A DNA stretch of 64,000 nucleotides from an uncultured bacterium (GCA_963700155.1 OY969472.1:176271-240270); one strand, 5' to 3'; shown: positions 30,942 through 45,463, counted from the stretch's first letter. Notes: generated from the sequence alone by a model not told the origin. Numbers and translations are program-made.

Positions 30942-30946
30942 TTAAA

Positions 30947-31020
30947 CGGGGTGAAAGGGGATCGAACCCTCAACCTTTCGCGTGACAGGCGAATGCTCTA
31001 ACCAGTTGAGCTATCACCCC
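30947..31020 (-). tRNA. tRNA-Asp (anticodon GTC), 74 nt, no encoded CCA
   Basis: Reverse complement is GGGGTGATAGCTCAACTGGTTAGAGCATTCGCCTGTCACGCGAAAGGTTGAGGGTTCGATCCCCTTTCACCCCG. It folds as a cloverleaf with anticodon loop CTGTCAC. Confidence 0.9.
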
Positions 31021-31082
31021 AAAATTTGGAGCATGTACATTTTAACAAAAATCAGGGATTTTTCTAGTCTAAATATACATAA

Positions 31083-31679
31083 TCAACCTTCAGCATCTTT
31101 ATAGGAATATCTTAAAGTAAAACTTTGCAATTCATTGTTATATTGATCATAACTTTTAAGGTAAAGTTTTCCATTTTTATTAAAATCAAGCCAAAATCCA
31201 TCAACTCTAAAATTACTTGTTGATTGAGATGGTGTCCACCTTGAAATACTCCAATCATCCACAGGTAAATACTGCATCCATATACCGGAAATTCTATCAG
31301 AAAATCCACCAGCTCCATACATTCCCCATTCACTTGTCTGATTGTTATCGTAATCCAATCCAGCCATATTAACTATTGCTATTGAGCGATCTCTTTTAGT
31401 TATCATATATATTTCACTAAGTAATGATATCCTATCAAAATCAGGTTGTTCAGATAAATACATATTAGAAAACAAATCCGGTAGAGGTAATTGGGCTTCT
31501 AATAATTTTGCATCAAGGTAATTTTTCTGCCAAGAAATATCACTATGCATTTCTGGAGATACGGTTGGCACTTGTCTAGAAATTGGAGTAATAGTTGGAG
31601 CCTGTGTTGCTTGAGGATTTCCACCACAAGCTGAAAGGGCTAACAAGCCTGCTGCTACTTCAAGGCGAGAGAACTTCAT
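31083..31679 (-). CDS. Putative lipoprotein
   Basis: Signal peptide with lipobox LLALSAC|GGN. The rest is a hydrophilic, Trp/Tyr-rich domain. Confidence 0.6.
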   Translation of the reverse strand: MKFSRLEVAAGLLALSACGGNPQATQAPTITPISRQVPTVSPEMHSDISWQKNYLDAKLLEAQLPLPDLFSNMYLSEQPDFDRISLLSEIYMITKRDRSIAIVNMAGLDYDNNQTSEWGMYGAGGFSDRISGIWMQYLPVDDWSISRWTPSQSTSNFRVDGFWLDFNKNGKLYLKSYDQYNNELQSFTLRYSYKDAEG

Positions 31680-31759
31680 TAATATGAACTTAATATATCA
31701 AATATAATTGAATAATAGCATATAAAAAAGGAATCTTTAAAATGAAGTTCTCTCGCCTT
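31662..31759. repeat. Perfect 19-bp inverted repeat (AAGGCGAGAGAACTTCATT / AATGAAGTTCTCTCGCCTT) flanking a 60-bp AT-rich spacer
   Basis: Left arm at 31662-31680 is the first 6 codons of the lipoprotein gene. Right arm at 31741-31759 overlaps the 3' end of the HAD gene. Confidence 0.8.
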
Positions 31760-32335
31760 TTAAATTTGGAGAAAATCTATTCCACACTTATCTGCAGCAA
31801 CTCCATCATTTAATCTGCTGTCACCTATCATTAAATATTTTGATTTATCTTCATCTTCACGATAAAGATCTTTAAAGCCAACTGGATCTGGTTTTAAATA
31901 TTTAACACTATCTCTTGTTACAAGTTTTGAAAAAGCACTTCTTATATTTTGTTCACCTAAAATTTTGTCTACCGTAGTCAAAGTGTTTGAAGTCCAAAGG
32001 TAAAAAGTATATTTATCTTTATTCTTTCTAATAAAATCTATTATTTCTTTATTTGGAGTATACCCTTTAAGATTTTTTCTCTCGAAATCAATCCATAACT
32101 TTGCAATAATTACCCACGATGGCGGTCCAAACCTTTTTACAATCATATTAGCAACAACTGAGATATCATTAACCATTTTAACTTTTGAAGTGAAGCTTTT
32201 ATCTACATTCTTTTCGAAATATTTTAATTGTTCTGTTAACTTAGACCAAGGAAGTATTAAAGTTGCAATTGTATGATCAAAATCAAAGATTAAGAATTCT
32301 TTTGGATGATCTTCGAGGTATTTTTCAAGTTCCAT
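31760..32335 (-). CDS. HAD-superfamily hydrolase
   Basis: Motif I FDFDHTIA (DxDxT) near the N-terminus. Size is typical of small HAD phosphatases. Confidence 0.6.
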   Translation of the reverse strand: MELEKYLEDHPKEFLIFDFDHTIATLILPWSKLTEQLKYFEKNVDKSFTSKVKMVNDISVVANMIVKRFGPPSWVIIAKLWIDFERKNLKGYTPNKEIIDFIRKNKDKYTFYLWTSNTLTTVDKILGEQNIRSAFSKLVTRDSVKYLKPDPVGFKDLYREDEDKSKYLMIGDSRLNDGVAADKCGIDFLQI

Positions 32336-32428
32336 AAATAAATTATATCAGAAGTTTTATGAAAGTCTTGTGATTTCTATAATCTTTTTTATAAAAGGAA
32401 CATAGAGTATAATTCTACTGAAATTCAA

Positions 32429-32446
32429 GCAGACGTGGCGGAATTG
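32429..32446 (+). repeat. 18-nt duplicate of the 5' end of tRNA-Leu(GAG) (GCAGACGTGGCGGAATTG), 124 nt upstream of the intact gene
   Basis: Exact match to tRNA positions 1-18. The sequence diverges after that. Confidence 0.8.
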
Positions 32447-32552
32447 ATCATAAGGTCAATTGAGACAAATGTAATGTAGTCGAAATAAAGACCGCATGAA
32501 TCCCCTGAGGGGAGCATACTTGAGTAGCAGAAGTTTGGTAATATTGTTTTAT

Positions 32553-32636
32553 GCAGACGTGGCGGAATTGGCATACGCGCTACCTTGAGGTGGTAGTCCA
32601 AGCAATTGGGTGCAGGTTCAAGTCCTGTCGTCTGCA
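32553..32636 (+). tRNA. tRNA-Leu (anticodon GAG), type II, 84 nt
   Basis: GCAGACGTGGCGGAATTGGCATACGCGCTACCTTGAGGTGGTAGTCCAAGCAATTGGGTGCAGGTTCAAGTCCTGTCGTCTGCA. Anticodon loop TTGAGGT, long variable arm, T-loop GGTTCAAGTCC. Confidence 0.85.
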
Positions 32637-32697
32637 TTAGCTTACCAAAAAGAAATTATATATAACTCAAGTATTTTAGATGTTCTAATTTACAAAT

Positions 32698-33408
32698 ATG
32701 AAACTTTACAGAGGATTTATTGTTGATCATAATAAACCACAAAACGATCCATTCCGACAGGAATCTTCAATTAACATTGCGGAGGCTATACGGGTGCCAG
32801 AAAAATTTGATCCTCATTCTTCAAATAACTCAAATCAACTATTGTGGGCAACTCCAGAAGAAAACTATGCAAAAGGGGTAAATCTAGCGAGATTTCTAAG
32901 CAGGTATATTTTTAGTTCAGCTTTTCGCGAGAGTGTGGGCCAAGGCAAAGTACAGCTAGCAATAGCAGAATATAATGTAGAAGAGGGTAATGTTTATCTC
33001 GTAAATGAAGATGGAGTTCACAAGTATTCCCCAGATGGAGAACAATATTTAATTCAGAAAAGTAATGACAGACCTCAGATACGTACCATTAGTCAGGATT
33101 CATTTACAGAAATAGTAGGATTATTAGGTCGGAAAGGTATGCAGGATTATATAGCGAGAGCGGCGTATAGATTATCTCAGCTATATAAATTAAGTATTAA
33201 CTGGAATAAAGAAAGAATAGTTAATGAGATGACTTTTTATGAAGGTGTAAATTATATACTCTCAAAATACTTTCCCCAAGTACTCTTACAAGAAGAGCTG
33301 TTAGAAGAATTTGCAGAAGGATTATTTGGAACCAGTCTTCGATTCAATAGAATTGCGGAAAATTCAAATTATTCAAACTTATTTGAAGGGGAAATAGATC
33401 TAAGATAA
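32698..33408 (+). CDS. Hypothetical protein (first gene of the repeat-punctuated segment)
   Basis: ORF only, no motif recognised. Confidence 0.45.
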   Translation: MKLYRGFIVDHNKPQNDPFRQESSINIAEAIRVPEKFDPHSSNNSNQLLWATPEENYAKGVNLARFLSRYIFSSAFRESVGQGKVQLAIAEYNVEEGNVYLVNEDGVHKYSPDGEQYLIQKSNDRPQIRTISQDSFTEIVGLLGRKGMQDYIARAAYRLSQLYKLSINWNKERIVNEMTFYEGVNYILSKYFPQVLLQEELLEEFAEGLFGTSLRFNRIAENSNYSNLFEGEIDLR

Positions 33409-33545
33409 ACTCTAATTCAATTTAAGAGAATTGAGATCAAACTGTATTAATTAGTTCATATCCTATTGTTTATTTATAAATACTTGCAGTTTAGCTTCTA
33501 GTGATATTTCTTTCTTTGTATTCAATAAGTTGCTATGGCTAGGAA

Positions 33546-33626
33546 ATTCAAGAGATTCTATAATAGTAGCGAATTCTTGGAGTTCTTCTATGATTTGGGT
33601 TCGCTTTCGATCCTCTAAGTTGCATT
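33546..33626 (+). repeat. Segment repeat copy 1, short subtype (...GATTCTATAATAGTAGCGAATTCTTGGAGTTCTTCTATGATTTGGGTTCGCTTTCGATCCTCTAAGTTGCATT)
   Basis: Near-identical to copies at 36231 and 39204 and to the 3' half of copies 2 and 3. Confidence 0.85.
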
Positions 33627-33684
33627 GAGTTGTTTTATAAATCTTTTATTGATAGAATCCAGGAATAAATTTTAACATCATATT

Positions 33685-33978
33685 ATGAGTGATCAACTCT
33701 TTGTTCAAAGACAAAGTATCTTTAACGCTAAGATTACAACAGCTGAAAGCTTGCTTGAAGCACTCCGAGTAGATAAGCCATACTTACAAGCAGAAACTGC
33801 TGAAGTTACAATAGTAAAGTACGAAGAGGTAGAAGGTATCGATTATTTTACTATCTCTGCTAGTTATTTCGTTTCGAATTCTCCAACTAGTAATCCATAT
33901 AAAAAAACTGAATTAATTACGATTACAGTAGATAAAGGAGAAATTAGTAATTTTGGTTCTAGAGTTATAGAAGGATAG
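33685..33978 (+). CDS. Hypothetical small protein
   Basis: ORF only. Confidence 0.4.
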   Translation: MSDQLFVQRQSIFNAKITTAESLLEALRVDKPYLQAETAEVTIVKYEEVEGIDYFTISASYFVSNSPTSNPYKKTELITITVDKGEISNFGSRVIEG

Positions 33979-34010
33979 GTGTTTAAATTTTACTCTTCAA
34001 AATTAATATA

Positions 34011-34108
34011 TTCCATAATGGTACTGAAAACTTTGAATTCTTCTAATATTACTCGAACTGAGCTACTACTCAGTTCACCGGTTCGCTTTCGATCCTCTAA
34101 GTTGCATT
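34011..34108 (+). repeat. Segment repeat copy 2, long subtype with a 27-nt insertion carrying the GAACTGAGCTACTACTCAGTTC hairpin
   Basis: Shares ...TTCTTCTAATATTACTCGAACTGAGCTACTACTCAGTTCACCGGTTCGCTTTCGATCCTCTAAGTTGCATT with copy 3. Confidence 0.85.
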
Positions 34109-34129
34109 ATTTTATTATAAACTCCTGAT

Positions 34130-34753
34130 TTAAGACTCTCTTCTTGACCTACTTAAAATGGTATCTATTGCCTGTACAAGATCAGCTCTATAGGTTTTAT
34201 AATTCCTAATAAAACTCTCCTCAGAACTAATTATTTGAGCAAATCTGTCAGCCAATGATTTATAATGGCCTGTCAAAGGTAGCATTAAAGAATATTCCAT
34301 ACTTAACAAAGTATTAACTGCATCTATATTAAAAAAGGTTTCAAATAAATCCCCAATCATTTCCAAAGTATATTCATTACCTATATCAGGATCTGCATCT
34401 GGAATACCAGCAAGCACTGGAAGTGAACCGCCATTTCCCATATATTCTAAAATCAAAGCCGTTGATTCCTTAAGTATACCGAGTATTTGCTTTCCTACAT
34501 CTGATAGACCTTCTAGTGCAGTTAACATACTTAAATCCCCTGATATATTTCGCCTTGCTAAATACCTTATTACATCAAATGGGATTTTAGGTGAAGCATT
34601 TAAAACATCCGCGATCTTGAATATTATTCCATTAATTTGAATAGTTTCTCCTAATTCTTCTCTTGAAAGTATTTTTGATCCTATCTCATCTGTTATTTTT
34701 GATACAAACAACGCTGGATTAGATTGAACTCTTTCTAGTGCATTTACATCCAT
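34130..34753 (-). CDS. Hypothetical protein
   Basis: ORF only. Confidence 0.45.
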   Translation of the reverse strand: MDVNALERVQSNPALFVSKITDEIGSKILSREELGETIQINGIIFKIADVLNASPKIPFDVIRYLARRNISGDLSMLTALEGLSDVGKQILGILKESTALILEYMGNGGSLPVLAGIPDADPDIGNEYTLEMIGDLFETFFNIDAVNTLLSMEYSLMLPLTGHYKSLADRFAQIISSEESFIRNYKTYRADLVQAIDTILSRSRRES

Positions 34754-34830
34754 ATATTAGTATTAAAATATAATTGTACGGAATATATAATTTTAATATA
34801 GAAAAAGCAAGTTGAATTTAAATAGCCTCA

Positions 34831-34939
34831 CATTCAATGGATTCTATAATAGTACTAAATTCTTGGAGTTCTTCTAATATTATTCGAACTGAGCTACTAC
34901 TCAATTCACCGGTTCTCTTTCGATCCTCTAAGTTGCATT
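34831..34939 (+). repeat. Segment repeat copy 3, long subtype
   Basis: CAATGGATTCTATAATAGTACTAAATTCTTGGAGTTCTTCTAATATTATTCGAACTGAGCTACTACTCAATTCACCGGTTCTCTTTCGATCCTCTAAGTTGCATTGA. Confidence 0.85.
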
Positions 34940-34946
34940 GACTTAT

Positions 34947-35591
34947 TCAATAAGGATTTTTCTTCTTGTCTTTTATATATTTTTCGTAATACTTCTTAGA
35001 GTCAAGAGCTTCTGGTCCAGTTCCATTCTCGAAATATTCTAAGAGTTGATCTTCAATATAATCATTCTCATCTGAATAAGAGACATTCCAATCATCTATT
35101 GTAATCAAAATACCTAACAAAACCTTATCTTTGAAGTTATAATCATAATACGTTGCTTTAGGGAACTTATGCATAATCTCAAACACAACCTCATGTAAAA
35201 AATTTTCAGAGATCTCATCATCAAAATAAAGCTTTAATACTTTTTTTATTAAAATTTTTACATCATCTTCAGTTGGTTTAGTTTTAGGAAAATTCTCATT
35301 TCGTATATATTCTCCAACTGTTGATTCGAGTTTATCTTCATCATTAGAGGCTAGTGTTTGATAAAAATCTAAAATCCTACCTCTTACCTCGATAAATTCT
35401 GTTGTTGGCTGTCTTACACTCCAATTCAAAGCTAATTCCACCAATGCTCTCAAGTTAGAATCAGATTTATCAATTTTTTGACAGAGAGATCTAGCATTTT
35501 CTGCGAGCTGCTTTCGAGATATTTGACCATCGAAATAACGCTTTATTGCATTTTCGAAAATTTTTCGAGTATTTGAATCATTAATTTTCAT
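34947..35591 (-). CDS. Hypothetical protein
   Basis: ORF only. Helical and Lys/Glu/Asp-rich. Confidence 0.45.
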   Translation of the reverse strand: MKINDSNTRKIFENAIKRYFDGQISRKQLAENARSLCQKIDKSDSNLRALVELALNWSVRQPTTEFIEVRGRILDFYQTLASNDEDKLESTVGEYIRNENFPKTKPTEDDVKILIKKVLKLYFDDEISENFLHEVVFEIMHKFPKATYYDYNFKDKVLLGILITIDDWNVSYSDENDYIEDQLLEYFENGTGPEALDSKKYYEKYIKDKKKNPY

Positions 35592-35786
35592 AGTTTACTA
35601 ATTATAATAATTAAAATTTTATATAGATTTTACCCCTTAAAAATATTTAAACCAACTTTGTCTTTTGGTAAAGCTCGTCACTGCTGACGAGAGAATTGTA
35701 GTCTGTTTCCAGATCTACACTTCTACAAAGTTGGTTTAACTTTTAGCTTCAGATCTACAAATCAACGATTTTGATACTGTTATGGA

Positions 35787-36035
35787 TCAGCCACCGAACC
35801 AGGAGCCGAAGCCACCTTTTTTTTCCTTCTTGCCCTTGCGGTCTTTGACAACACCCGTCTCGATGGTCAGTTTGCGCCCGTTGTCGTGATCGGTCTGGTG
35901 ATCCCCTGTCTTCGATCCATCAGGGTGGCGATCATGAGACCGGTGTAAACCGGGCTGGTGTTTTACCGTGTGAACATACGGTTTTCCATTCTTATCTTTC
36001 TTGTTCTCATTTTTCGTTGTATGTTTCCTAACCAC
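35787..36035 (-). CDS. GC-rich small His/Lys/Gly/Asp-rich hydrophilic protein (disordered, possibly stress- or metal-related)
   Basis: GTG start 5 nt after a strong AGGAGGTG SD. No hydrophobic core. About 50% GC against roughly 30% flanks. The 5'UTR has a GTGTCCGAAAAGGAACAC hairpin. Confidence 0.45.
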   Translation of the reverse strand: MVRKHTTKNENKKDKNGKPYVHTVKHQPGLHRSHDRHPDGSKTGDHQTDHDNGRKLTIETGVVKDRKGKKEKKGGFGSWFGG

Positions 36036-36230
36036 TTTACACCTCCTAAGGGTGTTCCTTTTCGGACACTTAATGTGTCATGAGTAATAATATTATCACT
36101 CAATCTATATATAATGTCAATATACTAGAGACGTTTGTAGAGCTCATCTACTAATATTTATCTAAAACTTTGATGAAATAAATCTTTATCTGCGGTAACT
36201 TCAACTGTTCGGATAGCTTCCGCATTGTCT

Positions 36231-36316
36231 TCAAACTCAATGGATTCTATAATAGTGCTGAACACTTGGAGCTCTTCGATGATTTGGGTTCGCTTTCGAT
36301 CCTCTAAGTTGCATTT
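36231..36316 (+). repeat. Segment repeat copy 4, short subtype
   Basis: CAATGGATTCTATAATAGTGCTGAACACTTGGAGCTCTTCGATGATTTGGGTTCGCTTTCGATCCTCTAAGTTGCATT. Confidence 0.85.
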
Positions 36317-36367
36317 GAATTTAGCTTTCACAACATTTATACTAAGGATAATAAAGTTAATTATCCT

Positions 36368-36976
36368 ATGAATAATATTGATTTACCCAATGCACTTCCA
36401 CAAGACATCATCGCAAAAGAAAAGCTTATAGAATTAGTTAGAGAAAAGTTAATACCAAAACTTGATTTATATAGAGATAGATTTTCTGACTTTCCAGAAC
36501 TACAGAAAAAGGTTTCAGACGAAACTATTGAAATCATGGTAGAAAGTTTTGCTGAATGTTTCTTACTACTTAATTTAACGCAGGAACATATTCCTGATTT
36601 TTTTGTATTTGATGAGAAGTTTAGAGAAGAAATAAGTATGATAACAAATACCGTATGGATTCTAAATAGTGAAGATGGACCTGTTTTTAATATAAACTAT
36701 GATCGTCTTTATGAAATATCACAAAGAATTTCAGAAAAAAATTCAAAATTAAATTTAATGGAAAAAGATCATTTACGACAAATGATTGCCCATGAAGTAC
36801 ACCATATTTATGATATATATTTTGATCCTGAAAGAGCAAAAATTTCAGGAATAGCAAATGCAAGAAGTGACTTAGCTTTCTTAGACCCAGGAGAAAATGC
36901 TGCTCAACAATTTGGTTTTAGATATCGTGATCTAAAAAAAGATGAAGATGACTTAAAAGTTAATAATAAAAACTGA
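36368..36976 (+). CDS. Hypothetical protein with an HExxH motif (possible zincin-like metallopeptidase)
   Basis: MIAHEVHHIYD contains HEVHH. No other support. Confidence 0.4.
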   Translation: MNNIDLPNALPQDIIAKEKLIELVREKLIPKLDLYRDRFSDFPELQKKVSDETIEIMVESFAECFLLLNLTQEHIPDFFVFDEKFREEISMITNTVWILNSEDGPVFNINYDRLYEISQRISEKNSKLNLMEKDHLRQMIAHEVHHIYDIYFDPERAKISGIANARSDLAFLDPGENAAQQFGFRYRDLKKDEDDLKVNNKN

Positions 36977-37142
36977 ACAAAATCGTTCTACCTCTACTTT
37001 CTATCATAATGACATCTAATCTAATCTTAATTTACCTCAATACTTACTTTTAACTTGGTTTTGGAAATTACAATATAGGAACTGTACTTGAACCATTAAT
37101 TATTTTCAGATGTTCAGAAAAGAAAAAATAAATTAAAATAGT

Positions 37143-37994
37143 ATGATGATTATTAAGACATACATTCCAAGCTCACCTTTAAATACATTTATAAAAGTTA
37201 TGTGGATTTCCGAAGGGGTAGCACAAACAAAAAGGATTAAGATTCTCCCCGACACATCACTTCATCTAATGATCAATTTAGGTGAGCCTTATAGAATATA
37301 CAAAACAGATACCGTGGAATGTATTACAACATGTAAAGAAAGTTGGTGCGTAGGAATATGGAAGAATTCCCACTTAATGGATTACCCCACTAAAATGCAT
37401 ATCTTAAATATTACGTTTTTACCTGGTGGAGCATTTCCATTTATTGGTTATCCAGCGATTGAGGTGGAAAACAATATTGTTCCACTAGAGGCAATTTGGG
37501 GATCTAAAGCTTTGGAGTTACGAGAGAAACTTTATTATGCACGTTCTGCAGATGAACGATTTAAAATTCTTGAAGTAAGTTTATTTCAAAGATTGAAAAA
37601 TACTGAAATATCAAAAGAACTTATTATGATCCAAGATGTTATTCGTCAAATTTCAGTTAATAATGGAGTTTTATCTATCTCTTCATTAAGTGAACTTTAC
37701 AATATTAGTCAAAAACACTTGATACATTTGTTCCTTAAGTTTGTGGGGGCTACTCCAAAAGAAGTTGCCAAGATATTTCGATTTAACTTTATACTTTCGC
37801 AAATAAATTCTAATTCCGACATAAACTGGACAAATATTTCTCAAGATTCCGGATACTATGATCAGTCTCATTTTAATAAGGACTTTAAATCATTCACTCA
37901 GATGACACCAAGTGAATATTTGAAGGAAACAATATTGGCAAATGGGAGGGTTCCGGAGTTGTCCTCTTCCCCAAATAATTTAGCAACTGGTTAA
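37143..37994 (+). CDS. AraC-family transcriptional regulator
   Basis: The C-terminal dual HTH (ISQKHLIHLFLKFVGATPKEVAKIFRFNFILSQI ... SGYYDQSHFNKDFKSFTQMTPSEYL) is diagnostic of AraC/XylS. Confidence 0.8.
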   Translation: MMIIKTYIPSSPLNTFIKVMWISEGVAQTKRIKILPDTSLHLMINLGEPYRIYKTDTVECITTCKESWCVGIWKNSHLMDYPTKMHILNITFLPGGAFPFIGYPAIEVENNIVPLEAIWGSKALELREKLYYARSADERFKILEVSLFQRLKNTEISKELIMIQDVIRQISVNNGVLSISSLSELYNISQKHLIHLFLKFVGATPKEVAKIFRFNFILSQINSNSDINWTNISQDSGYYDQSHFNKDFKSFTQMTPSEYLKETILANGRVPELSSSPNNLATG

Positions 37995-38022
37995 ATTTTT
38001 ACAAGCATTACCTCTATCATGG

Positions 38023-38517
38023 ATGTATTATTATAAAATATTAGGAGGTAATATGAAGAAATCAAATACATCTACAAATCAAGAAATTATAACAGTCAAG
38101 ACAATAAATGCATCCCCTGAACGCATTTGGAAAGCTTGGACAAATTCTGATGAAGTACGTACGTGGTGGGGTCCTGCTGGATTTTCAACTGAAACTCAAT
38201 TAATGGATGTGAAGCCGGGTGGAAACTGGGTATATATTATGCACGGACCAGACGGGAAAGACTATGCTAATGCTTTAGTTTATGATGAAGTTCAAGAACC
38301 AAATCGTTTAGTCTATACACATAAAGCAAGCCCTGAATTCAATTTAGACGGCTGGAAAATGATAAATACTTTTGAAGATATTGGAGGGAAAACAAAAGTA
38401 ACCATGCACGCTATTTATGCCTCTCCAGAGGAATACAATAAACATATCACTTTTTTTAATGCTGTTAAGGGAGCAAAAGAAATGCTTCAGCGGCTAGAAA
38501 AGTTTGTCAAGGAATAA
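38023..38517 (+). CDS. SRPBCC-superfamily protein, AHSA1/Aha1-like
   Basis: PERIWKAWTNSDEVRTWWGP and overall length are typical of the AHSA1 domain family. Confidence 0.65.
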   Translation: MYYYKILGGNMKKSNTSTNQEIITVKTINASPERIWKAWTNSDEVRTWWGPAGFSTETQLMDVKPGGNWVYIMHGPDGKDYANALVYDEVQEPNRLVYTHKASPEFNLDGWKMINTFEDIGGKTKVTMHAIYASPEEYNKHITFFNAVKGAKEMLQRLEKFVKE

Positions 38518-38543
38518 TTTAAGTTAATTTTTAAAAAGAAATT

Positions 38544-39149
38544 ATGAGAAAAATAATAGTCACAACAATGATAACAATCGATGGAGTGATGCAAGCTCCT
38601 GGAGGATCTAAAGAAGATACTGCTGAGGGCTTTTCATTTGGTGGGTGGACCGGACCTTACAACGACAAATTTACAGAAAAAATGTTTACAAGAGACATGT
38701 CAGGAAAATTTGATCTTTTGTTAGGGCGAAAAACCTATGAAATTTTCAAAGGATACTGGCCGGAGCATGCCTATGCTTGGCCTCGAATCAATGAAGTAAT
38801 GAAATATGTAGTGTCACGGAATTCTTCACTTAAAACAGATTGGAATAACTCTGTGCTTATTGGTATAGATATAGTCAAAGAAATAAAAAAACTTAAACGA
38901 GGTAACGGGCTTGATATTGAGATTTGGGGAAGCAGTAATCTAATCCAGACACTATTAAAAAATGATTTAGTAGATGAAATTTGGCTTAAAATATATCCTA
39001 TAACTTTAGGCACTGGGAAAAAGCTATTTTCTGAGGGGACAATCCCAGTTGCTTTCAAGCTAGAAGAGTGCAAAATTTCACCAAAAGGAGTCATTTTTGC
39101 TAATTATAAGAAAACCGGAAAAGTTAAAACAAGCGAGGTTAAAGACTAA
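38544..39149 (+). CDS. Dihydrofolate reductase-like (RibD C-terminal domain / YwjB family) protein
   Basis: MRKIIVTTMITIDGVMQAPGG ... YPITLGTGKKLF matches the DHFR-like RibD_C fold pattern. Confidence 0.65.
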   Translation: MRKIIVTTMITIDGVMQAPGGSKEDTAEGFSFGGWTGPYNDKFTEKMFTRDMSGKFDLLLGRKTYEIFKGYWPEHAYAWPRINEVMKYVVSRNSSLKTDWNNSVLIGIDIVKEIKKLKRGNGLDIEIWGSSNLIQTLLKNDLVDEIWLKIYPITLGTGKKLFSEGTIPVAFKLEECKISPKGVIFANYKKTGKVKTSEVKD

Positions 39150-39203
39150 GACGTGAGCATTAGTTATCGATAATCTTTTCACAGCTTAAGCATTAGAGTT
39201 TTT

Positions 39204-39243
39204 TCAATGATTTAGGTTCGCTTGCAGTCTTCTAAACTGCAAT
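39204..39243 (+). repeat. Segment repeat copy 5, degenerate 3' part of the short subtype
   Basis: TCAATGATTTAGGTTCGCTTGCAGTCTTCTAAACTGCAATG matches the consensus GATGATTTGGGTTCGCTTTCGATCCTCTAAGTTGCATTG. Confidence 0.6.
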
Positions 39244-39247
39244 GAAA

Positions 39248-39682
39248 TTACACATTAGTGATTTTTTCTCCTAATTCCTTTGCTCTCCATTGTAAATCTA
39301 TTAACACTCTAAACCTAGCATTCTTGGTTACATCAGTTTGTTTCAATAATTTTAATATCAACTCTGTTTCAAAATTCTTCATTCCTGTTGAATTTATAAG
39401 AAAATCAAGCATTACACAATTATTTGTACCAATGTCTTCCATCAATTGATTTGATACATTGCAAGTTGTAACTAAAAAAGTTCTCACTCCATTTAATTGA
39501 AAATACCCCTCATAAATCTTAATTAAATTATCTATACCTTCTTTAAGTATTAATACTGTAATATCCTGAGGATATTTTTCCAATAATTCTTTGATAGCAT
39601 TCTGACAAATAATTACATCACTAGTAGGTTCTTTATCCATAATATATAAATATGAGTTAATTTTCTGGATTATACATAACAA
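39248..39682 (-). CDS. Hypothetical protein (likely starts at the internal Met, MDKEPTSD, at 39640)
   Basis: ORF only. Confidence 0.4.
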   Translation of the reverse strand: MLCIIQKINSYLYIMDKEPTSDVIICQNAIKELLEKYPQDITVLILKEGIDNLIKIYEGYFQLNGVRTFLVTTCNVSNQLMEDIGTNNCVMLDFLINSTGMKNFETELILKLLKQTDVTKNARFRVLIDLQWRAKELGEKITNV

Positions 39683-39714
39683 TTCATGAATTTATCAAGT
39701 TGTGTTGGTTGTTA

Positions 39715-39756
39715 GGCGCGGCGTTAAATGCCGCGCCATCTCAACCTTGCTAATTA
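39715..39756. repeat. Cassette-1 3' element: GGCGCGGCG-TTAAA-TGCCGCGCC hairpin plus terminal IR AACCTTGCTAATTA
   Basis: Nearly identical elements at 40943-40980 and 41751-41782. The 14-bp IR partner TAATTAGCAAGGTT is at 40798-40811. Confidence 0.85.
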
Positions 39757-40635
39757 TCAATTAGTCCGACGCCTGATCATCTCCAGTACTTGTTGGGCTT
39801 GATATGTAGAACAGGATGGGGTAAGCCCCCATACATGAGTATTGTCGTCTGTCAGGTATATAGGTTCACGGGTAAGCCAGGCGTTCGAATATAAGCCATT
39901 TCGCACTACAATCATCCACTCTCCTTCTGTTGGAAGAAGTTGTTTCGACATTAGCCCATCGGTGTCAAAGAGTGGAGTCCAGTATCCGCCTGGACCATTC
40001 TTAATCTGACCTGCGACTTCACCATTGATCTTATAAATGACTTCTCCGAAGTCGCAGAACGGGACATCCTCACCAGGGCTTGGTGCCACATAGTCGGACG
40101 TCTTGTCGAAATCCACCCACACTGACGCTTCAGAGCCATCAATTCCGACCCGGACAGCGTTACCCTCGCAGGATTGCACTGTGGTGTCGTAACCAATGAC
40201 CGAGATCCCCGCTTCAAGCTGAAGCTGGGAGTCAAGATAAATCTCGACGCTCGGCGGAACGCGAATCGGATTATCGATAGCGCAATGCCTTACTGTCTCC
40301 TGCACTCCGCCAAGTTGATCAGTGTAGCTGGAGGTTTCATCGAAATCCGCCAAGTCTACCCACACACCAGCATCCACACTAGCTACTGATCTATCGTGGA
40401 AAATGACAAGAGCTGCATTTCCCTGGCATGCTCTAACTTCACCATCGAAGCCAGCGATCAAGGATCCAGCACTAACTTGAAGCTGAGAGTCAAGGTAAAG
40501 TGCAGTACCTGCTGGAACATGAATCGAGGGGAGTCCTGTGACACAGTAACGCTGATGAACATCCTGCCCAAGAGCAGGCTGAATCAGTCCGATAGTGAGC
40601 AATACGCCCACGAATATTACCACTAATTTCTTCAT
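39757..40635 (-). CDS. Secreted protein, paralogue 1 of a three-member family (two internal about 70-aa repeats plus a shared C-terminal domain). GC-rich.
   Basis: Signal peptide MKKLVVIFVGVLLTIGLIQPALGQ. Internal duplication YCVTGLPSIHVPAGTALYLDSQLQ... and HCAIDNPIRVPPSVEIYLDSQLQ.... C-terminus GEWMIVVRNG...HVWGLTPSC...VLEMI is shared with paralogues 2 and 3. Confidence 0.7.
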   Translation of the reverse strand: MKKLVVIFVGVLLTIGLIQPALGQDVHQRYCVTGLPSIHVPAGTALYLDSQLQVSAGSLIAGFDGEVRACQGNAALVIFHDRSVASVDAGVWVDLADFDETSSYTDQLGGVQETVRHCAIDNPIRVPPSVEIYLDSQLQLEAGISVIGYDTTVQSCEGNAVRVGIDGSEASVWVDFDKTSDYVAPSPGEDVPFCDFGEVIYKINGEVAGQIKNGPGGYWTPLFDTDGLMSKQLLPTEGEWMIVVRNGLYSNAWLTREPIYLTDDNTHVWGLTPSCSTYQAQQVLEMIRRRTN

Positions 40636-40724
40636 TTCCGGTCTCCAGTATATTATGATTTTGCAGCTACGCTTATAAAGGACGCTACTTACCCTCAGTC
40701 TTTAAAGTTCGAGCTCGTTCAGCT

Positions 40725-40782
40725 TTAAAGATGCGCAAACTAACCTCATTTTATTTTTAAAGTCAGTTTGCGCATCTTAAAG
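40725..40782. promoter_or_regulatory. Large palindromic operator-like element upstream of paralogue 1 (TTTAAAGATGCGCAAACTAAC ... GTCAGTTTGCGCATCTTAAAG)
   Basis: A roughly 21-bp inverted repeat around a 16-nt AT spacer. It is related to the elements upstream of paralogues 2 and 3. Confidence 0.55.
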
Positions 40783-40942
40783 TACAAACTCAAGCAATAA
40801 TTAGCAAGGTTGTTAATGAACTGTAAAACTAACAAATGATTAGAATTTACAAGGGGATTATATCATGGTGATATACTTATGTCACATTAAAGTATCATAG
40901 GTACTTATTTAGGAAGGAATTAAGGAAGTTAGATTAGGTTCA

Positions 40943-40980
40943 GGCGCGGCGTTAAACGCCGCGCCTTCTCAACCTTGCTA
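40943..40980. repeat. Cassette-2 3' element: GGCGCGGCGTTAAACGCCGCGCC hairpin plus AACCTTGCTA
   Basis: A perfect 9-bp GC stem with a 5-nt loop. The IR partner AGCAAGGTT is at 41554-41562. Confidence 0.85.
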
Positions 40981-40981
40981 G

Positions 40982-41389
40982 CTATCCTAGGAAAATCCCG
41001 ATGAGATGAAGTAACCAAACGAGAAACTCGAGCTGCGGTTTTACGCACCCAATTGAATAGGTCCAAACCCTTGAGCCAGGTTTGACACTATCATATGGGG
41101 TTGCTGATACTTCGGCAGTGCTGAACAGTATTCGATCATTATGCAATCTTGCTACGATTAACCACTGCCCCGAAGGATTTACAAATATTGCTCCTCCGTT
41201 ATCAGTACTTAGCGAATCGAAGTACCATCCATTACTCATTGGTACCTGACGAAGCCCTTTTATTAGAATGCACTCAGTCACTCCAAGTGACATCCCCGAG
41301 CTGGAGCTATCGGCGAGAGCTGGGATAATTTGCAGTCCCAGCAATCCAATGAGCAATATGCTCACTAAGAATAATGGAATTCTATTCAT
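40982..41389 (-). CDS. Secreted protein, paralogue 2 (135 aa), GC-rich
   Basis: Signal peptide MNRIPLFLVSILLIGLLGLQIIPALA. GQWLIVARLHND...RVWTYSIGC...LEFLV aligns with the shared C-terminal domain. Confidence 0.65.
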   Translation of the reverse strand: MNRIPLFLVSILLIGLLGLQIIPALADSSSSGMSLGVTECILIKGLRQVPMSNGWYFDSLSTDNGGAIFVNPSGQWLIVARLHNDRILFSTAEVSATPYDSVKPGSRVWTYSIGCVKPQLEFLVWLLHLIGIFLG

Positions 41390-41476
41390 TCTACCTCCAT
41401 TACAAGCTACTGCAGCTTCGCTAACTCAAGGATGCTGCTACCCTTATCATCAAGTACTGAGCTCATTCGGACTCGA

Positions 41477-41524
41477 TGACGCGCAAAGTAACTTAAAATT
41501 TAATTATCGTCACTTTGCGCGTCA
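41477..41524. promoter_or_regulatory. Palindromic operator-like element upstream of paralogue 2 (TGACGCGCAAAGTAAC-N16-GTCACTTTGCGCGTCA)
   Basis: A 16-bp IR with one mismatch. Near-identical copy at 42479-42526. Confidence 0.6.
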
Positions 41525-41553
41525 CCAATCTTAAAATTTTCAAGGATATTATC

Positions 41554-41650
41554 AGCAAGGTTATCAGTAATCTTTCATAGCTTTCGCATATGATTTTGAT
41601 TACTAACAACATTAATCCCATAAGTGGGATTGCTGTTATTAATGTGCTTA
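41554..41650. repeat. Conserved about 100-nt AT-rich structured block (AGCAAGGTTATCAGTAATCTTTCATAGCTTTCGCATATGATTTTGATTACTAACAACATTAATCCCATAAGTGGGATTGCTG...)
   Basis: Repeated at 42555-42660 with a few substitutions. Contains AGTAATC/GATTACT and AATCCCA/TGGGATT hairpins. Confidence 0.8.
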
Positions 41651-41750
41651 TAATACTATTATACACTAAGAGATTATTTTATATAATATAAGAAGTATAT
41701 AAGGATTTTAAAGATATCTATATTTATTTGAAAGTTATCAGGCGCGGCGT

Positions 41751-41782
41751 TAAACGCCGCGCCTACATCGATAACCTTGCTA
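41751..41782. repeat. Cassette-3 3' element: GGCGCGGCGTTAAACGCCGCGCC hairpin plus AACCTTGCTA (overlaps the stop codon)
   Basis: As for cassettes 1 and 2. The IR partner CATAGT..TAGCAAGGTTAT is at 42543-42566. Confidence 0.85.
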
Positions 41783-42406
41783 ACTATGCATAATCTCCAA
41801 GATGTGATCAAGATCCCCCTGATCACACCCATTGTTCAGCGCCCAGACGTGGGCGCCGAAAATCGAGCTGACGAACGTGTAATTGACAAACCGAGCGGTC
41901 TGCCAGAGATCGTTGCCTTCAGGTCCTTTGTCCACTACTAAGAGCAGTTGCCCGTAATAGTGGAGATCAGTCGAGGGATGAACAAAGACGATTCCTCCTT
42001 GATTAGTCTCACGACCGGCATGATAATCTCCGTCACCGATGGCGTCGCCGCCAAAAACCTTCTGAATACGGCAGATCGGGCGAGTAACTTGCGGTCCATC
42101 AGGCATAATTGAGCCTTCAAAGATGGAATTCCTTATATCATCAACCGCAACCCATAACCGATGATCGGAGCCGTGAATACTGATCTCTGCTGAATCGATG
42201 TCATCTGCGCAAGTATTCACAACAGCACCAAATCCTTCCGTTGTCAGACCATATTGTTCGGTCCGACCCGCGTCATTGAATAGCCAGGTGCCTGGCTGGA
42301 CAATTACGTAGCCATTCGTACATGCCACATTTTCTTGCCCGATGGCTGGCGTAACCAGCATGGCTGAAAGGACAATGAACACAATGAACAGAACTAGCTT
42401 CTTCAT
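41780..42406 (-). CDS. Secreted protein, paralogue 3 (208 aa), GC-rich
   Basis: Signal peptide MKKLVLFIVFIVLSAMLVTPAIGQ. The C-terminus GQLLLVVDKG...HVWALNNGC...ILEIM aligns with paralogues 1 and 2. Confidence 0.7.
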   Translation of the reverse strand: MKKLVLFIVFIVLSAMLVTPAIGQENVACTNGYVIVQPGTWLFNDAGRTEQYGLTTEGFGAVVNTCADDIDSAEISIHGSDHRLWVAVDDIRNSIFEGSIMPDGPQVTRPICRIQKVFGGDAIGDGDYHAGRETNQGGIVFVHPSTDLHYYGQLLLVVDKGPEGNDLWQTARFVNYTFVSSIFGAHVWALNNGCDQGDLDHILEIMHS

Positions 42407-42478
42407 TTTCTTATCTCCGTTTTGAACTCTTTCTCTCGAAGTATGCTTATCATCTTCCCGAATGATTCCTGGGTTTAA

Positions 42479-42526
42479 TGACGCGCAAAGTAACTTAAAA
42501 TTTAATTATTGTCACTTTGCGCGTCA
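42479..42526. promoter_or_regulatory. Palindromic operator-like element upstream of paralogue 3
   Basis: TGACGCGCAAAGTAACTTAAAATTTAATTATTGTCACTTTGCGCGTCA. Confidence 0.6.
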
Positions 42527-42554
42527 CTAACTTTCAGTTCTAACATAGTTATAT

Positions 42555-42660
42555 TAGCAAGGTTATCAGTAATCCTTTCATAGCTTTCACATATGATTTT
42601 GATTACTAACAACATTAATCCCATAAAAGGAATTGCTGTTGTTAATGTTCTAAGTAAACT
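42555..42660. repeat. Second copy of the conserved about 100-nt block, beginning with TAGCAAGGTT
   Basis: See 41554-41650. Confidence 0.8.
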
Positions 42661-42774
42661 CATAAATGAATCTACTCGATTGAATTATATCATCGGTATA
42701 TATTTCTTATCAAACTTTTATTTATGAATAAGTTAACTTTAAAATTTCTTTTTCAAAAGCTATACTATTGATAT

Positions 42775-43245
42775 ATGGAAATAAAAATAAGTAAAAATAA
42801 AATAAGTTTATTTTTCAAAATATTAATAACATCAATAATTTTATTAGCTGTACTTGCTTTCTTTCTACCATTTATAGAAAAAGACGCTTCGAGTTTTGAT
42901 AATAGCAATGTTAACTCAAATGGGTATATTGATAACTTGGGATATGTTAATTATTCTCCAGCCATAAAGAGCTTTTCAAATAAAAAGAATGTTTTATTCT
43001 TTAAAGCAAATTGGTGTTCCACTTGTACAACGGCTGATCTGAACTTTCAGAAAGAACTTCAAAATAAAAGTATTCCAAACTACTTAACTATTTATAAAGT
43101 AGATTTTGAAAAAGATGTTGCCTTAAAACAGAAATACGGAGTAACTCTTCAACATACTTTTGTTCAGGTAGATAATAACGGAAATGAACTAAAAAAATGG
43201 ATCGGAAGTTATACTATTGATGAAGTTCTTAAAGAAATCGTTTAA
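42775..43245 (+). CDS. Thioredoxin-fold protein with an N-terminal TM anchor (CxxC)
   Basis: TM ILITSIILLAVLAFFLPF. FFKANWCSTCTTAD is a thioredoxin-like CxxC active site. Confidence 0.55.
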   Translation: MEIKISKNKISLFFKILITSIILLAVLAFFLPFIEKDASSFDNSNVNSNGYIDNLGYVNYSPAIKSFSNKKNVLFFKANWCSTCTTADLNFQKELQNKSIPNYLTIYKVDFEKDVALKQKYGVTLQHTFVQVDNNGNELKKWIGSYTIDEVLKEIV

Positions 43246-43721
43246 ATTACATCTTCAATCTGAGGATTACATAATATCAGCCAATTTTTTGAATTCATTA
43301 ATATTGAAATTGATCTATCCCCAGCATTAAATGCTATTTCATCATTATTTAATAAAGTTTTTTCAGCAATCATTTTTATTCCAAAAAGATTTCCAAAAGG
43401 TGGCACTCCACCAGGAATTACACCGTTTGTAATCTGAAATACTTCATCAGCAGTAGCAAAACTTAGTTTATTTATTCCTAGAATACCTCTGACTTTTTTA
43501 GAATCAAATCTTTGATCACCAGGGACAATAACCATTGCAAATTCATAAACTTTATCTTTGTTTTTATATTTGACTATTAATGCTTTTGCTCCTTGAGTAA
43601 TGCTAATGTCACCTCTTACCTTTGCTGCTTCTTCAGAGGTCCTTACAGGTTCATGCCTAAATTCTTTATATGAAATATTATTATCTTTTAGTAGCTGATT
43701 AATTTTTTCGTATGTGTTCAT
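43242..43721 (-). CDS. ybaK: YbaK/ProX-family aminoacyl-tRNA deacylase (Cys-tRNA(Pro) trans-editing)
   Basis: GAKALIVKY...VIVPGDQRFDSKKV...TNGVIPGGVPPFG matches the YbaK/EbsC deacylase domain pattern. Confidence 0.7.
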   Translation of the reverse strand: MNTYEKINQLLKDNNISYKEFRHEPVRTSEEAAKVRGDISITQGAKALIVKYKNKDKVYEFAMVIVPGDQRFDSKKVRGILGINKLSFATADEVFQITNGVIPGGVPPFGNLFGIKMIAEKTLLNNDEIAFNAGDRSISILMNSKNWLILCNPQIEDVI

Positions 43722-43786
43722 CTTTATAAATTTAGATATACGAAAAAGATTTTAATCTATTTAATTTTTATATTCTACCTTTAGGA

Positions 43787-44218
43787 TTATTTCTTTGTTG
43801 TAGTTTTCTTAGTTGCAGTTTTTTTTGCAGCTGACTTTGTTACCTGTTTTTTTACTGTCGAAGTTTTTTTAATTATTGGTTTCGTATCAACTTTAGTTGA
43901 TGGCATTACATCTATTTCTGTAGGCTTAACTTCTCCACCTTGAACAACAGCTGAAGCACTCTCAACAACATCAACATATTTTTGATGTCTTTTATATCCT
44001 GTCATTCTTCTGAATGCAACGAAGCCTAGTTTTGTTGCATAAAGTGTGAAATCTCTTCCTTGTTTAACATTTACACCTGGATAAAATTCAGAACCTCTTT
44101 GTCTGACAATAATTTCTCCTGGATTAACTTTTTCTCCACCAAATTTTTTAATGCCTAGTCTTTTTCCTATGACATCAACTGTTCTTTTTGCTGAACCGGT
44201 GGCGGCTGAATGTGCCAT
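43787..44218 (-). CDS. rpmA: 50S ribosomal protein L27 with a Lys/Thr-rich C-terminal extension
   Basis: RLGIKKFGGEKVNPGEIIVRQRGSEFYPGVNVKQGRDFTLYA is the conserved L27 core. Confidence 0.9.
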   Translation of the reverse strand: MAHSAATGSAKRTVDVIGKRLGIKKFGGEKVNPGEIIVRQRGSEFYPGVNVKQGRDFTLYATKLGFVAFRRMTGYKRHQKYVDVVESASAVVQGGEVKPTEIDVMPSTKVDTKPIIKKTSTVKKQVTKSAAKKTATKKTTTKK

Positions 44219-44228
44219 TCTCTACAAT

Positions 44229-44546
44229 TTAATATTTAATAGATGTAACTTTAAATTTAGTTACTGATTTTCTGAAACCTCTATTTCTTCTATATCTTGA
44301 TTTTGCCTTAAAAATTCTGCTATTTACTTTTTCACCTTTTCCTTGTTCTAAAATTTCTAATTCAACAACTCCTTTAACAACATTTGGAGTGCCTACAACT
44401 AATTTATCTTCGTCTCCAACTGCTAAAACACTTTCAACTTTCATCTTTTTTCCTACTTCTGCTGTAAAATTAGGCACAGTATATTCTCTGCCTTCATTGA
44501 CAGTATATTGAAACATTCCGATTTGTATTATTGCGTATTTACTCAT
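44229..44546 (-). CDS. rplU: 50S ribosomal protein L21
   Basis: MSKYAIIQIGMFQYTVNEG... and the L21 fold pattern. It is in an operon with rpmA. Confidence 0.85.
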   Translation of the reverse strand: MSKYAIIQIGMFQYTVNEGREYTVPNFTAEVGKKMKVESVLAVGDEDKLVVGTPNVVKGVVELEILEQGKGEKVNSRIFKAKSRYRRNRGFRKSVTKFKVTSIKY

Positions 44547-44675
44547 ATTGAATATTTATTTTTTAGGCTGATGTAGTGTACTACAAAGCACAATTTATAT
44601 CAAGAATTATAGCATAGACTTGCTTATTTGTGAGTATATATACTATATTTATTATTATTTTGTTAAGTTATATAT

Positions 44676-44912
44676 ATGCAAGGAGAATCTCAAATAAAAT
44701 CAATAAAATCTGATTTAGAAGATCTTGAAAATAACATCGCATTGGGATTAAGTTATGAAGATATTGAAAAAACTTGGACTGATGCACAAAGTACAAGAAT
44801 TGAAGAAAATGTTGTCAGACACTTACAATCTAAAGATCTTTTATACCATGGATTACAGTTATGGGAAGTTTTAAGAATTAACGCGATTGTAAAAAATATA
44901 GATGGTAATTGA
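44676..44912 (+). CDS. Hypothetical small protein
   Basis: ORF only. Confidence 0.35.
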   Translation: MQGESQIKSIKSDLEDLENNIALGLSYEDIEKTWTDAQSTRIEENVVRHLQSKDLLYHGLQLWEVLRINAIVKNIDGN

Positions 44913-45014
44913 TATGTTTTAAATGATTTTGTAGACCTAATTGATCAGATATTTCTAAAAGTTAGTTTATATGGTGAAAGTAATTATGCAGATCTTAATA
45001 GTGAAATAAGGACA

Positions 45015-45404
45015 TTGTTAATTAAAAACCTTAAATCTGAAAACTCTCCATTAAAAAGATTTGAAAACGATCAAACTAGAAAAACAAAAGACGCAAGCAT
45101 AAATTATGTAATGAGATGGGTAAAACTTCCAAATTTTACACTAAATGAAAAATTTTTATCAAAGTCTGGGAAAGTAAGCATGGCAGATTTTGAAAAGATT
45201 ATGACTCCATTTTGGAGAAGTTTATGTAACGCTATGCTTGACTTCAATCTCAAAGAGAGTGATCTTAAAGATATTATATTAGAATTAAATATAGCTGGTT
45301 ACGACAGTAAACTATTTCCATTAAAATTTCTAAGAGAAGTTTTCAAATCAGTTGAAAAAGAACAACAAAATATTACACACAGAAAAGATCTTGGTATGGA
45401 TTAG
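45015..45404 (+). CDS. Hypothetical protein
   Basis: ORF only. Confidence 0.4.
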   Translation: MLIKNLKSENSPLKRFENDQTRKTKDASINYVMRWVKLPNFTLNEKFLSKSGKVSMADFEKIMTPFWRSLCNAMLDFNLKESDLKDIILELNIAGYDSKLFPLKFLREVFKSVEKEQQNITHRKDLGMD

Positions 45405-45407
45405 TTT

Positions 45408-45436
45408 ATAAAATTGGGGAAAGCGAAGCTTTCCCC
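45408..45436. terminator. Bidirectional intrinsic terminator between convergent genes (AATTGGGGAAAGC-GAA-GCTTTCCCCAATT)
   Basis: A perfect 13-bp inverted repeat with a G/C core, flanked by A/T runs on both sides. It sits between the stop of 45015..45404 and the stop of thrS. Confidence 0.7.
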
Positions 45437-45463
45437 AATTACTTTTAACTTTGAAAGTATAAG

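Follow-up and report, generated by a model that had tools for sequence, protein, structure and literature searches.

The stretch of DNA analysed here, called the window throughout, covers 64,000 nucleotides (nt) from an uncultured bacterium (GCA_963700155.1 OY969472.1:176271-240270), and its feature of interest is the interval of about 10 kb between a gene for tRNA-Leu(GAG) and a thioredoxin-like gene (trx), together with an 18-nt copy of the 5' end of that tRNA gene lying upstream of it. Table 1 collects the coordinates, counted from the first letter of the window. The G+C (GC) content of the window is ~30%, and the closest threonyl-tRNA synthetases (ThrRS) among the GTDB representative genomes come from metagenome-assembled genomes of Patescibacteria (64-65% identity); the host appears from these sequence comparisons to be a member of this phylum (also termed the candidate phyla radiation, CPR) with a small AT-rich genome. 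All nine proteins of the region and its flanks that could be looked up are singletons in 90% clusters. A preliminary description of this DNA had reported hypothetical genes, an AraC/SRPBCC/DHFR-like trio, a GC-rich small gene and a GC-rich secreted-protein trio between the tRNA and trx, all of which were found, and its resumption of housekeeping genes at 42775 agrees with the succession of the thioredoxin-like gene, YbaK, L27 and L21.

Table 1. Features of the tRNA-Leu(GAG)-trx locus (aa, amino acids; GC3, GC content at third codon positions)
Feature	Position	Strand	Remarks
Left anchor: tRNA-Asp(GTC), 198-aa gene, HAD hydrolase	30946-32335 (30946-31021; 31083-31679; 31760-32335)	-	
Ancestral tRNA promoter block	32381-32423	+	AATCTTTTTTATA-N-GAGTATAATTC; TATAAT at 32408-32413
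Distal 18-nt copy	32429-32446	+	exact match to tRNA positions 1-18
Inserted spacer	32447-32552	+	106 nt; absent from relatives
tRNA-Leu(GAG)	32553-32636	+	Rfam RF00005, 53 bits; ARAGORN gives 32552-32637
Proximal 18-nt copy	32553-32570	+	first 18 nt of tRNA-Leu(GAG), GCAGACGTGGCGGAATTG
Variable interval	32638-42724		tRNA-Leu 3' end to conserved trx promoter; ~10.1 kb, about 17 genes
Four unassigned genes	32698-35591		236 aa (+), 97 aa (+), 207 aa (-), 214 aa (-); GC3 0.19-0.24
Family-1 repeat copies	A 33544-33641; B 33997-34121; C 34828-34953; D 36231-36315; weak 39200-39249	+	
82-aa gene	35787-36035	-	GC 0.50, GC3 0.57; strong AGGAGG ribosome-binding site
Block of 202-aa gene, AraC-type regulator, SRPBCC/AHSA1, RibD_C	36368-39149	+	Pfam; between family-1 copies D and F
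AraC-type regulator (DUF6597 + HTH_18)	37143-37994	+	
SRPBCC/AHSA1	38023-38517	+	
RibD_C	38544-39149	+	
144-aa gene	39248-39682	-	GC3 0.21, native
Family 2, three tandem foreign-composition cassettes	39714-42710	-	unit starts 39714, 40942, 41740
Signal-peptide proteins, 292, 135 and 208 aa	39757-40635; 40982-41389; 41780-42406	-	
trx promoter region and thioredoxin-like gene, right anchor	42725-43245 (gene 42775-43245)	+	Pfam Thioredoxin
Backbone ybaK, rpmA, rplU, thrS	43242-47206 (ybaK 43242-43721)	-	same order in L120, L132; partly L121

Relatives for comparison were obtained with YbaK, which retrieved five at 63-68% identity whose contigs were used for synteny; searches that started from the HAD gene or used GTDB genomes or JGI metagenomes yielded no syntenic relative, the best GTDB thrS matches (64-65%) being non-syntenic. 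The three contigs compared most closely, L119, L120 and L121, are metagenomic, with YbaK proteins 65-68% identical to that of the window, and L120, the only one of the three to carry thrS, has a ThrRS 80% identical. Contig L120 has the order thrS, rplU, rpmA, ybaK, dsbD, trx (52% amino acid identity), MIP, DUF2200 and tRNA-Leu(GAG), so that trx and the tRNA are separated by 1,079 base pairs (bp) holding only the MIP and DUF2200 genes. In L119 the distance is 5,526 bp and the order ybaK, dsbD, trx, a 130-aa gene, MIP, a 794-aa gene, DUF2200, three small genes and tRNA-Leu(GAG), followed by a 212-aa homologue of the 198-aa gene (30% identity) and tRNA-Asp, with no HAD gene. L121 lacks trx and reads rpmA, ybaK, three small genes, DUF2200, RibD_C and tRNA-Leu(GAG), with 2.4 kb from ybaK to the tRNA. 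DUF2200 is present in all three relatives and MIP in two, and the window has neither. When the interval was compared with the relatives by blastn and tblastx, RibD_C was the sole match. On the right side the trx product is 49-52% identical to those of L119 and L120, and the block upstream of the gene (...AAAGCTATACTAT...) is conserved with both.

These comparisons point to a conserved backbone of thrS to ybaK and trx, a variable segment, tRNA-Leu, the HAD gene in some cases, and the 198-aa gene with tRNA-Asp, of which each relative has parts. Conserved flanks enclosing different content, which is the comparative signature of a hotspot, are seen in L119, L120 and L121 alike. The length and content of the interval between tRNA-Leu(GAG) and trx or ybaK are variable, and by this measure the interval is a variable hotspot, probably one of recombination or gene turnover, in this lineage of Patescibacteria. 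The preliminary description had taken an identical gene order in relatives as the observation that would speak against an island, and its synteny check came out the other way.

Several smaller features of the flanks accompany this arrangement. A DsbD-type membrane gene lies between ybaK and trx in L119, L120 and L122 and is missing in the window, where trx and ybaK share 4 nt at their 3' ends (43242-43245). The L27 protein (43787-44218, minus strand) has a C-terminal extension of ~55 aa giving 143 aa in total; it has 144 aa in the more distant L123 (3033-3467) and 115-124 aa in L120, L121 and L132. On the left side, homologues of the HAD protein anywhere are only 36-40% identical and non-syntenic. 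A perfect 19-nt inverted repeat occupies 31662-31680 and 31741-31759, its first arm being the start of the 198-aa gene (A+ATGAAGTTCTCTCGCCTT) and its second arm following directly after the HAD stop codon; the pair may represent either another short scar of duplication or a hairpin masking the start codon in read-through transcripts.

The interval is a compositional mosaic. Against a background GC3 of 0.13-0.25 the 82-aa gene stands out, as do the three signal-peptide genes at 39757-40635 (0.47), 40982-41389 (0.43) and 41780-42406 (0.51), and the AraC/SRPBCC/RibD_C trio is mildly raised at 0.27-0.29. The tetranucleotide distance reaches 0.45-0.57 at about 39.5-42.7 kb compared with a median of 0.25, and from 32.6 to 39.5 kb everything apart from the 82-aa gene is at background composition. 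Atypical composition therefore covers ~3.3 kb and not the whole span, about two thirds of which is native. The heterogeneity described earlier, and the k-mer and codon-usage check proposed for it, hold for 39.5-42.7 kb and the 82-aa gene, whereas the remainder looks native and the span is not one unit. The ~3.3 kb of higher-GC DNA is recently acquired.

Most genes of the interval resist assignment. The 236-, 97-, 207- and 214-aa genes next to the tRNA are mutually unrelated and have no significant match in Pfam, NCBIfam or PHROGs, and the same scans returned no match for the 144-aa gene. The 82-aa protein is very basic and rich in His, Lys, Asp and Gly, forms a singleton 90% cluster and sits in AT-rich native surroundings; its gene has no Rfam match. 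The 202-aa gene has a GC3 of 0.15. The PHROGs search gave 0 matches for 10 proteins of the region, a blastn search of 50,697 phage records with the GC-rich array was empty, and neither phage-family proteins nor DNA similarity indicative of a prophage or phage remnant was seen. No plasmid similarity was found for the interval, and a plasmid donor of the AraC and SRPBCC genes was discarded since their best plasmid matches are merely 33-46% identical. No integrase, recombinase or transposase domain was detected in the open reading frames (ORFs) of at least 150 aa across the window or in the scanned smaller ORFs of the region, as the preliminary description had stated for integrases.

RibD_C is the one gene of the interval with a counterpart at the same place in a relative. 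It is 59% identical in amino acids and 66% in nucleotides to the L121 gene adjoining tRNA-Leu, with its orientation inverted relative to the tRNA, and because of this same-locus homologue it is a resident of the lineage and not cargo. This bears on the proposal of the preliminary description that the interval is one 10-kb island, inserted by a tRNA-targeting integrase that was later lost, with the 18-nt repeat as its scar. An interval that varies among relatives and adjoins a tRNA, and that holds many unassigned genes and a block of foreign composition, is what such an island would present, but the native composition of about two thirds of the span and the position of RibD_C in L121 argue against a single arrival, as does the lack of any integrase, phage or plasmid signal.

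A further feature that appears at first to favour a single island is an imperfect inverted repeat (19 of 23 positions, 32638-32660 and 42740-42762) located at exactly both edges of the interval, its left arm starting 1 nt past the annotated tRNA 3' end (32637) and its right arm ending 12 nt before the trx start codon. The right arm is the sole reverse-complement match to the left arm at up to five mismatches in the window, and a repeat of this quality was reached by 1 of 300 shuffles and by none of 248 real-sequence controls (~0.3%). Terminal inverted repeats of a 10-kb transposon-like element were nevertheless rejected, since no target-site duplication is present and the right arm lies in trx promoter DNA common to L119 and L120; being part of this conserved promoter, it is not an element terminus.

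The 18-nt repeat is a distinct feature of the other side of the tRNA gene. The tRNA-Leu(GAG) gene is intact, with CCA not encoded, and has homologues in L119, L120 and L121. Its first 18 nt, GCAGACGTGGCGGAATTG, span the 5' strand of the acceptor stem, the 5' strand of the D-stem and half of the D-loop, and occur exactly twice in the window with a start-to-start distance of 124 nt, as reported before. The earlier proposal to look for additional copies gave none in the window with up to three mismatches (0 in 100 shuffles), and no downstream fragment of tRNA-Leu of at least 16 nt (up to two mismatches) is present in the window, the 3' end included. The distal copy is an end fragment and not an internal one. 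On inspection the repeat ends within the D-loop, where the inverted repeat of the D-stem flanks it. Tyrosine recombinases use this kind of symmetry at sites in the anticodon loop and the T-loop.

The duplication is reproduced in the independently assembled Logan contig L001 (ERR11571143), which is 100% identical to the window over 31039-33619 and ends within family-1 repeat copy A, and it is therefore no assembly artefact. For the locus as a whole an artefact or chimera would have to be entertained because the source is a metagenome-derived 1.14-Mb contig and the GC-rich array has no second assembly; against this stand the exact agreement of L001 and the direct continuation of the upstream module of the array into the trx promoter conserved with the relatives, and this explanation is scarcely credible. 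A scan of JGI metagenomes for the duplication found none, the 34 loci that share this 5' half of the tRNA being unrelated tRNA-Leu(GAG) genes. A viral origin of the 18-mer was set aside as three of the four viral-contig matches are complete phage tRNA-Leu genes and the fourth, in coding-looking sequence, is probably due to chance. Viral contig L131 (1490-4282, IMG/VR IMGVR_UViG_3300043772_004626) matches the 18-mer junction by chance over 21 nt; it contains no forward-strand ORF of at least 80 aa and one 86-aa reverse ORF over ~2.8 kb (code 11) in DNA that looks coding, so that this phage may use a recoded stop codon.

The relatives indicate which of the two copies is older. In L119 and L121 a block consisting of AATCTTTTTTATA-N9/10-GAGTATAATTC, with the TATAAT motif, ends 10-11 nt ahead of tRNA-Leu +1. 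In the window the equivalent block is placed 15 nt ahead of the distal 18-mer, not ahead of the tRNA, and its local alignment with the 110-130 nt upstream of the tRNA-Leu genes of L119 and L121 scores 36-37, compared with shuffle means of 16-19 and a score equalled by 0-1 of 2000 shuffles. Since the block abuts the tRNA in the relatives and the distal copy here, the distal copy marks the original 5' end of the tRNA gene, and 124 bp (the 106-nt spacer plus regenerated nt 1-18) were inserted in this lineage, splitting the tRNA from its old promoter. L119 and L121 show the empty site, from which the polarity of the insertion can be read. The spacer itself contains on inspection an extended -10-like sequence TGGTAATAT (32536-32544) 8 nt ahead of the tRNA, carries the CCCCTGAGGGG hairpin, and is straddled at its left junction by an 8-bp imperfect inverted repeat (AATTGATC/GGTCAATT). 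The 18-mer is a real recombination scar, unusual in lying on the 5' side, and the insertion is separate from and independent of the 10-kb variable interval.

Comparison with tRNA genes (tDNAs) occupied by genomic islands supports this separation. In the Islander scheme an island is the DNA between the tDNA and a displaced fragment, 2-200 kb in length, with a tyrosine integrase gene inside or overlapping it; of its 3919 islands, 3760 have a 3' fragment and 159 a 5' fragment, and crossover is described in the anticodon loop, in the T-loop and at the T/acceptor junction (PMC4383910). As in tDNA-integrated islands and prophages, the window has an intact tRNA with its cognate end fragment in the same orientation, the 5' fragment lying upstream in a permitted layout, and a hotspot adjacent to the tRNA. 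The differences are that the interval between fragment and tRNA is 106 bp and not at least 2 kb, that no Phage_integrase or recombinase domain occurs in the scanned ORFs of the window, that the large variable region lies on the other side of the tRNA with no tRNA fragment at its far end, and that the crossover would fall in the D-loop. Because inserted DNA lies between a tDNA and the fragment displaced from it (PMC4383910), the 18-mer pair, which encloses 106 bp upstream, cannot delimit the 10 kb downstream, and the downstream region has no 3' tDNA fragment of its own. The earlier reading of the 18-mer as an integration mark thus survives as a recombination scar and fails as a boundary of the 10 kb; of the earlier view of the interval the variability is borne out, and a single 10-kb integrated island, which this geometry contradicts, is improbable.

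How the 124 bp arose is less certain. The spacer does not significantly resemble the remainder of the tRNA, the ancestral upstream region or the sequences upstream of the tRNA in the relatives; it belongs to no Rfam family and has no second copy in the window or in any fetched locus. A decayed tandem tRNA copy was rejected (427 of 1000 shuffles align as well with the rest of the tRNA), as was a simple tandem duplication of promoter plus 18-mer, the spacer showing no significant match to the ancestral upstream region. Known RNAs were also discarded for the spacer, the repeats and the GC-rich patches, Rfam being empty at both gathering and E-value thresholds.

The 124 bp entered the 5' part of the tRNA gene, leaving the original nt 1-18 beside the old promoter at 32429-32446, followed by the spacer and a fresh copy of nt 1-18 that serves as the present functional 5' end. 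The leading reading, still tentative, is that a site-specific integration into the tDNA from its 5' side left this insertion behind when the body of the element was lost, a course of events that is possible and slightly doubtful. The attachment site of the element (attP) would have borne tRNA nt 1-18 and a promoter, with crossover in the D-loop and subsequent loss of the element body. Transcription of the tRNA would now start from the extended -10 of the spacer, or from the old promoter with RNase P trimming a leader of ~130 nt. The end of the repeat in the D-loop, the inverted repeat of the D-stem and the 8-bp inverted repeat at the left junction are suggestive of an attachment-type (att-type) site.

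The main alternative is that the insertion is a product of repair or replication, in which 18 bp were duplicated and filler DNA was taken up through a staggered break or a template switch. In its favour, the spacer has no terminal inverted repeats, coding capacity, other copy or homologue, and the inverted copy of the 198-aa gene start, which borders the extra HAD gene, is a hint that the locus is prone to events of this kind. A precise end in the D-loop, a functional tRNA and an extended -10-like promoter, however, are what an att-type event predicts and are unexpected from a random break, and no source of the filler was found; a repair origin is unlikely, if a serious competitor. A different proposal is that the distal 18-mer is functional, acting in the leader, where its pairing to the 3' acceptor strand of the precursor would control processing or transcription of tRNA-Leu. 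The 18/18 identity outside the gene and the minimum free energy fold of 32420-32640, which pairs the distal copy with the 3' acceptor strand (z = -2.4), agree with this, but the pairing follows trivially from the sequence identity, the relatives are without the element and a recent origin explains the identity equally well, making a leader function very improbable.

The content of the variable interval is punctuated by two families of repeats. The dispersed repeats of the window are confined to the interval, except for internal repeats of a gene for 2192 aa and a short palindrome at ~59.8 kb. Family 1 consists of copies of 85-125 nt in one orientation, placed in gaps between unrelated genes and nowhere else in the window. 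Its best pairs are 85-88% identical in a nested pattern (A most like D, B most like C), and the copies share the core GGTTCGCTTTCGATCCTCTAAGTTGCATT at a sharp common end. Copies B and C have an in-frame 27-nt insert with an 8-bp hairpin. No Rfam family matches the repeats, and they are not small protein genes, a start codon being present only in copy D and a stop codon directly ahead of copy B. Past its TGA, the 214-aa gene stays open for another 42 codons (34947 to 34821) and runs into copy C, in the same frame that is open in all four main copies, and the TGA is probably a recent nonsense mutation or a coincidence. This open frame prompted consideration of UGA recoding (code 25 or code 4), which was excluded: TGA terminates 10 of the 51 ORFs, including ABC-transporter genes with ATGA overlaps, and as a real stop codon it implies the standard genetic code.

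Family 2 comprises the ends of the three cassettes encoding signal-peptide proteins. Each upstream module consists of AACCTTGCTAAT and a palindrome with a 16-bp stem, GTGACGCGCAAAGTGAC..., and each 3' module of TTAGCAAGGTT and the GGCGCGGCGTTTAACGCCGCGCC hairpin. These non-coding ends are 88-96% identical and the proteins between them are merely 21-31% identical in local alignments. The secreted proteins have essentially no homologues among 1.8-5.8 billion proteins, their remote matches being to repeats in giant proteins only, and assignment of a function from structure was abandoned with an AlphaFold model of unusable quality (predicted local distance difference test score, pLDDT, 41). Scans of viral contigs gave no match to the repeats. 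In family 2 an inverted repeat of 11-12 nt (TTAGCAAGGTT/AACCTTGCTAA), with arms ~175-215 nt apart, encloses each segment between the genes, an arrangement like that of an invertible promoter.

Same-orientation repeats of 85-125 nt between unrelated, mostly uncharacterised genes, with a second array having conserved unit ends and divergent cargo, recall integron arrays and clusters of attC sites lacking integron integrases (CALINs). An attC site is an imperfect palindrome, 57-141 nt long, which carries R''(RYYYAAC)...R'(GTTRRRY) and forms a hairpin as a single strand. Single-stranded folds of family 1 on both strands have z of -0.4 to +1.1 for most copies, only the local 8-9-bp hairpin of the 27-nt insert stands out, and inspection of the repeats revealed no R''/R' pair, so attC sites were rejected. 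The locus differs from integrons in having no attC-like folding (z about 0), no IntI or other integrase in the window and no attI, the last two not being required for a CALIN. The GTT...AAC polarity of the family-2 hairpin is the reverse of R''/R', and several of the "cassettes" contain multiple or reversed genes. A more radical reading joins the two sides of the tRNA: the end of the 18-mer in the D-loop would be the footprint of an undescribed D-arm tDNA recombination in Patescibacteria, and the interval would have been filled cassette by cassette through the two flanking-repeat families in an integron-like process without attC or IntI. This reading is quite improbable. We know of no cassette-exchange mechanism in the phylum Patescibacteria.

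Taken together, the locus is probably a mosaic hotspot anchored at a tRNA and assembled in several events, with an independent small insertion scar on the 5' side of the tRNA gene. The interval would have been built up from native-looking genes split by family-1 repeats, the resident RibD_C with the AraC and SRPBCC genes, and ~3.3 kb of acquired DNA. Four points weigh against this reading. The relatives are distant and the proteins looked up are singletons in their clusters, so that the order, number and polarity of the events (gain here versus loss there) are conjectural. The junctions of the GC-rich array have no confirmation in a second assembly. The step from scar to integration remnant is conjecture, the spacer having no recognisable element feature, the 106-bp interval failing every island criterion and the 64 kb containing no integrase. 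Finally, this reading gives no role to the rare 19/23 inverted repeat linking the edges of the interval.

Flexible genomic islands of the additive or replacement kind are hotspots bounded by core genes and often adjacent to tRNAs. The tRNA-Leu interval resembles them in its conserved flanks, its separate gene set in each relative, its mixture of native and foreign DNA and its lack of mobility genes; the variability here is known across distant relatives and not within a population. Patescibacteria have tiny genomes with few recognised mobile elements, and their route of gene gain and loss is unclear, which gives value to a concrete, comparatively verified tRNA-anchored variable region in such a genome. 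The secreted-protein cassettes may have a role at the cell surface or in interaction with a host. The tRNA gene outlived an insertion into its 5' side by gaining a new 5' end and, probably, a new promoter as well. Should the repeat families turn out to be recombination sites, the locus would point to cassette exchange in Patescibacteria. As it stands the locus is ordinary genome plasticity, of which it forms a well-documented instance.

Other parts of the window contain features unrelated to the interval. Two ORFs on the minus strand, one of 2192 aa with internal DNA repeats (12081-18659) and one of 495 aa (7883-9370), combine a high GC content at second codon positions (GC2, 0.55-0.65) with a native GC3 of 0.14 and have no Pfam domains; they probably encode large surface proteins. 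Because GC2 is high and GC3 is 0.14, the GC-rich patches at 7.9-9.4 and 12-18.6 kb reflect amino acid composition. A PrgI-like protein (20583-21659) adjoins tRNA-Leu(TAA), and a cobalamin riboswitch (24851-24999, minus strand; Rfam RF00174, 43 bits) is located upstream of a 616-aa protein without family.

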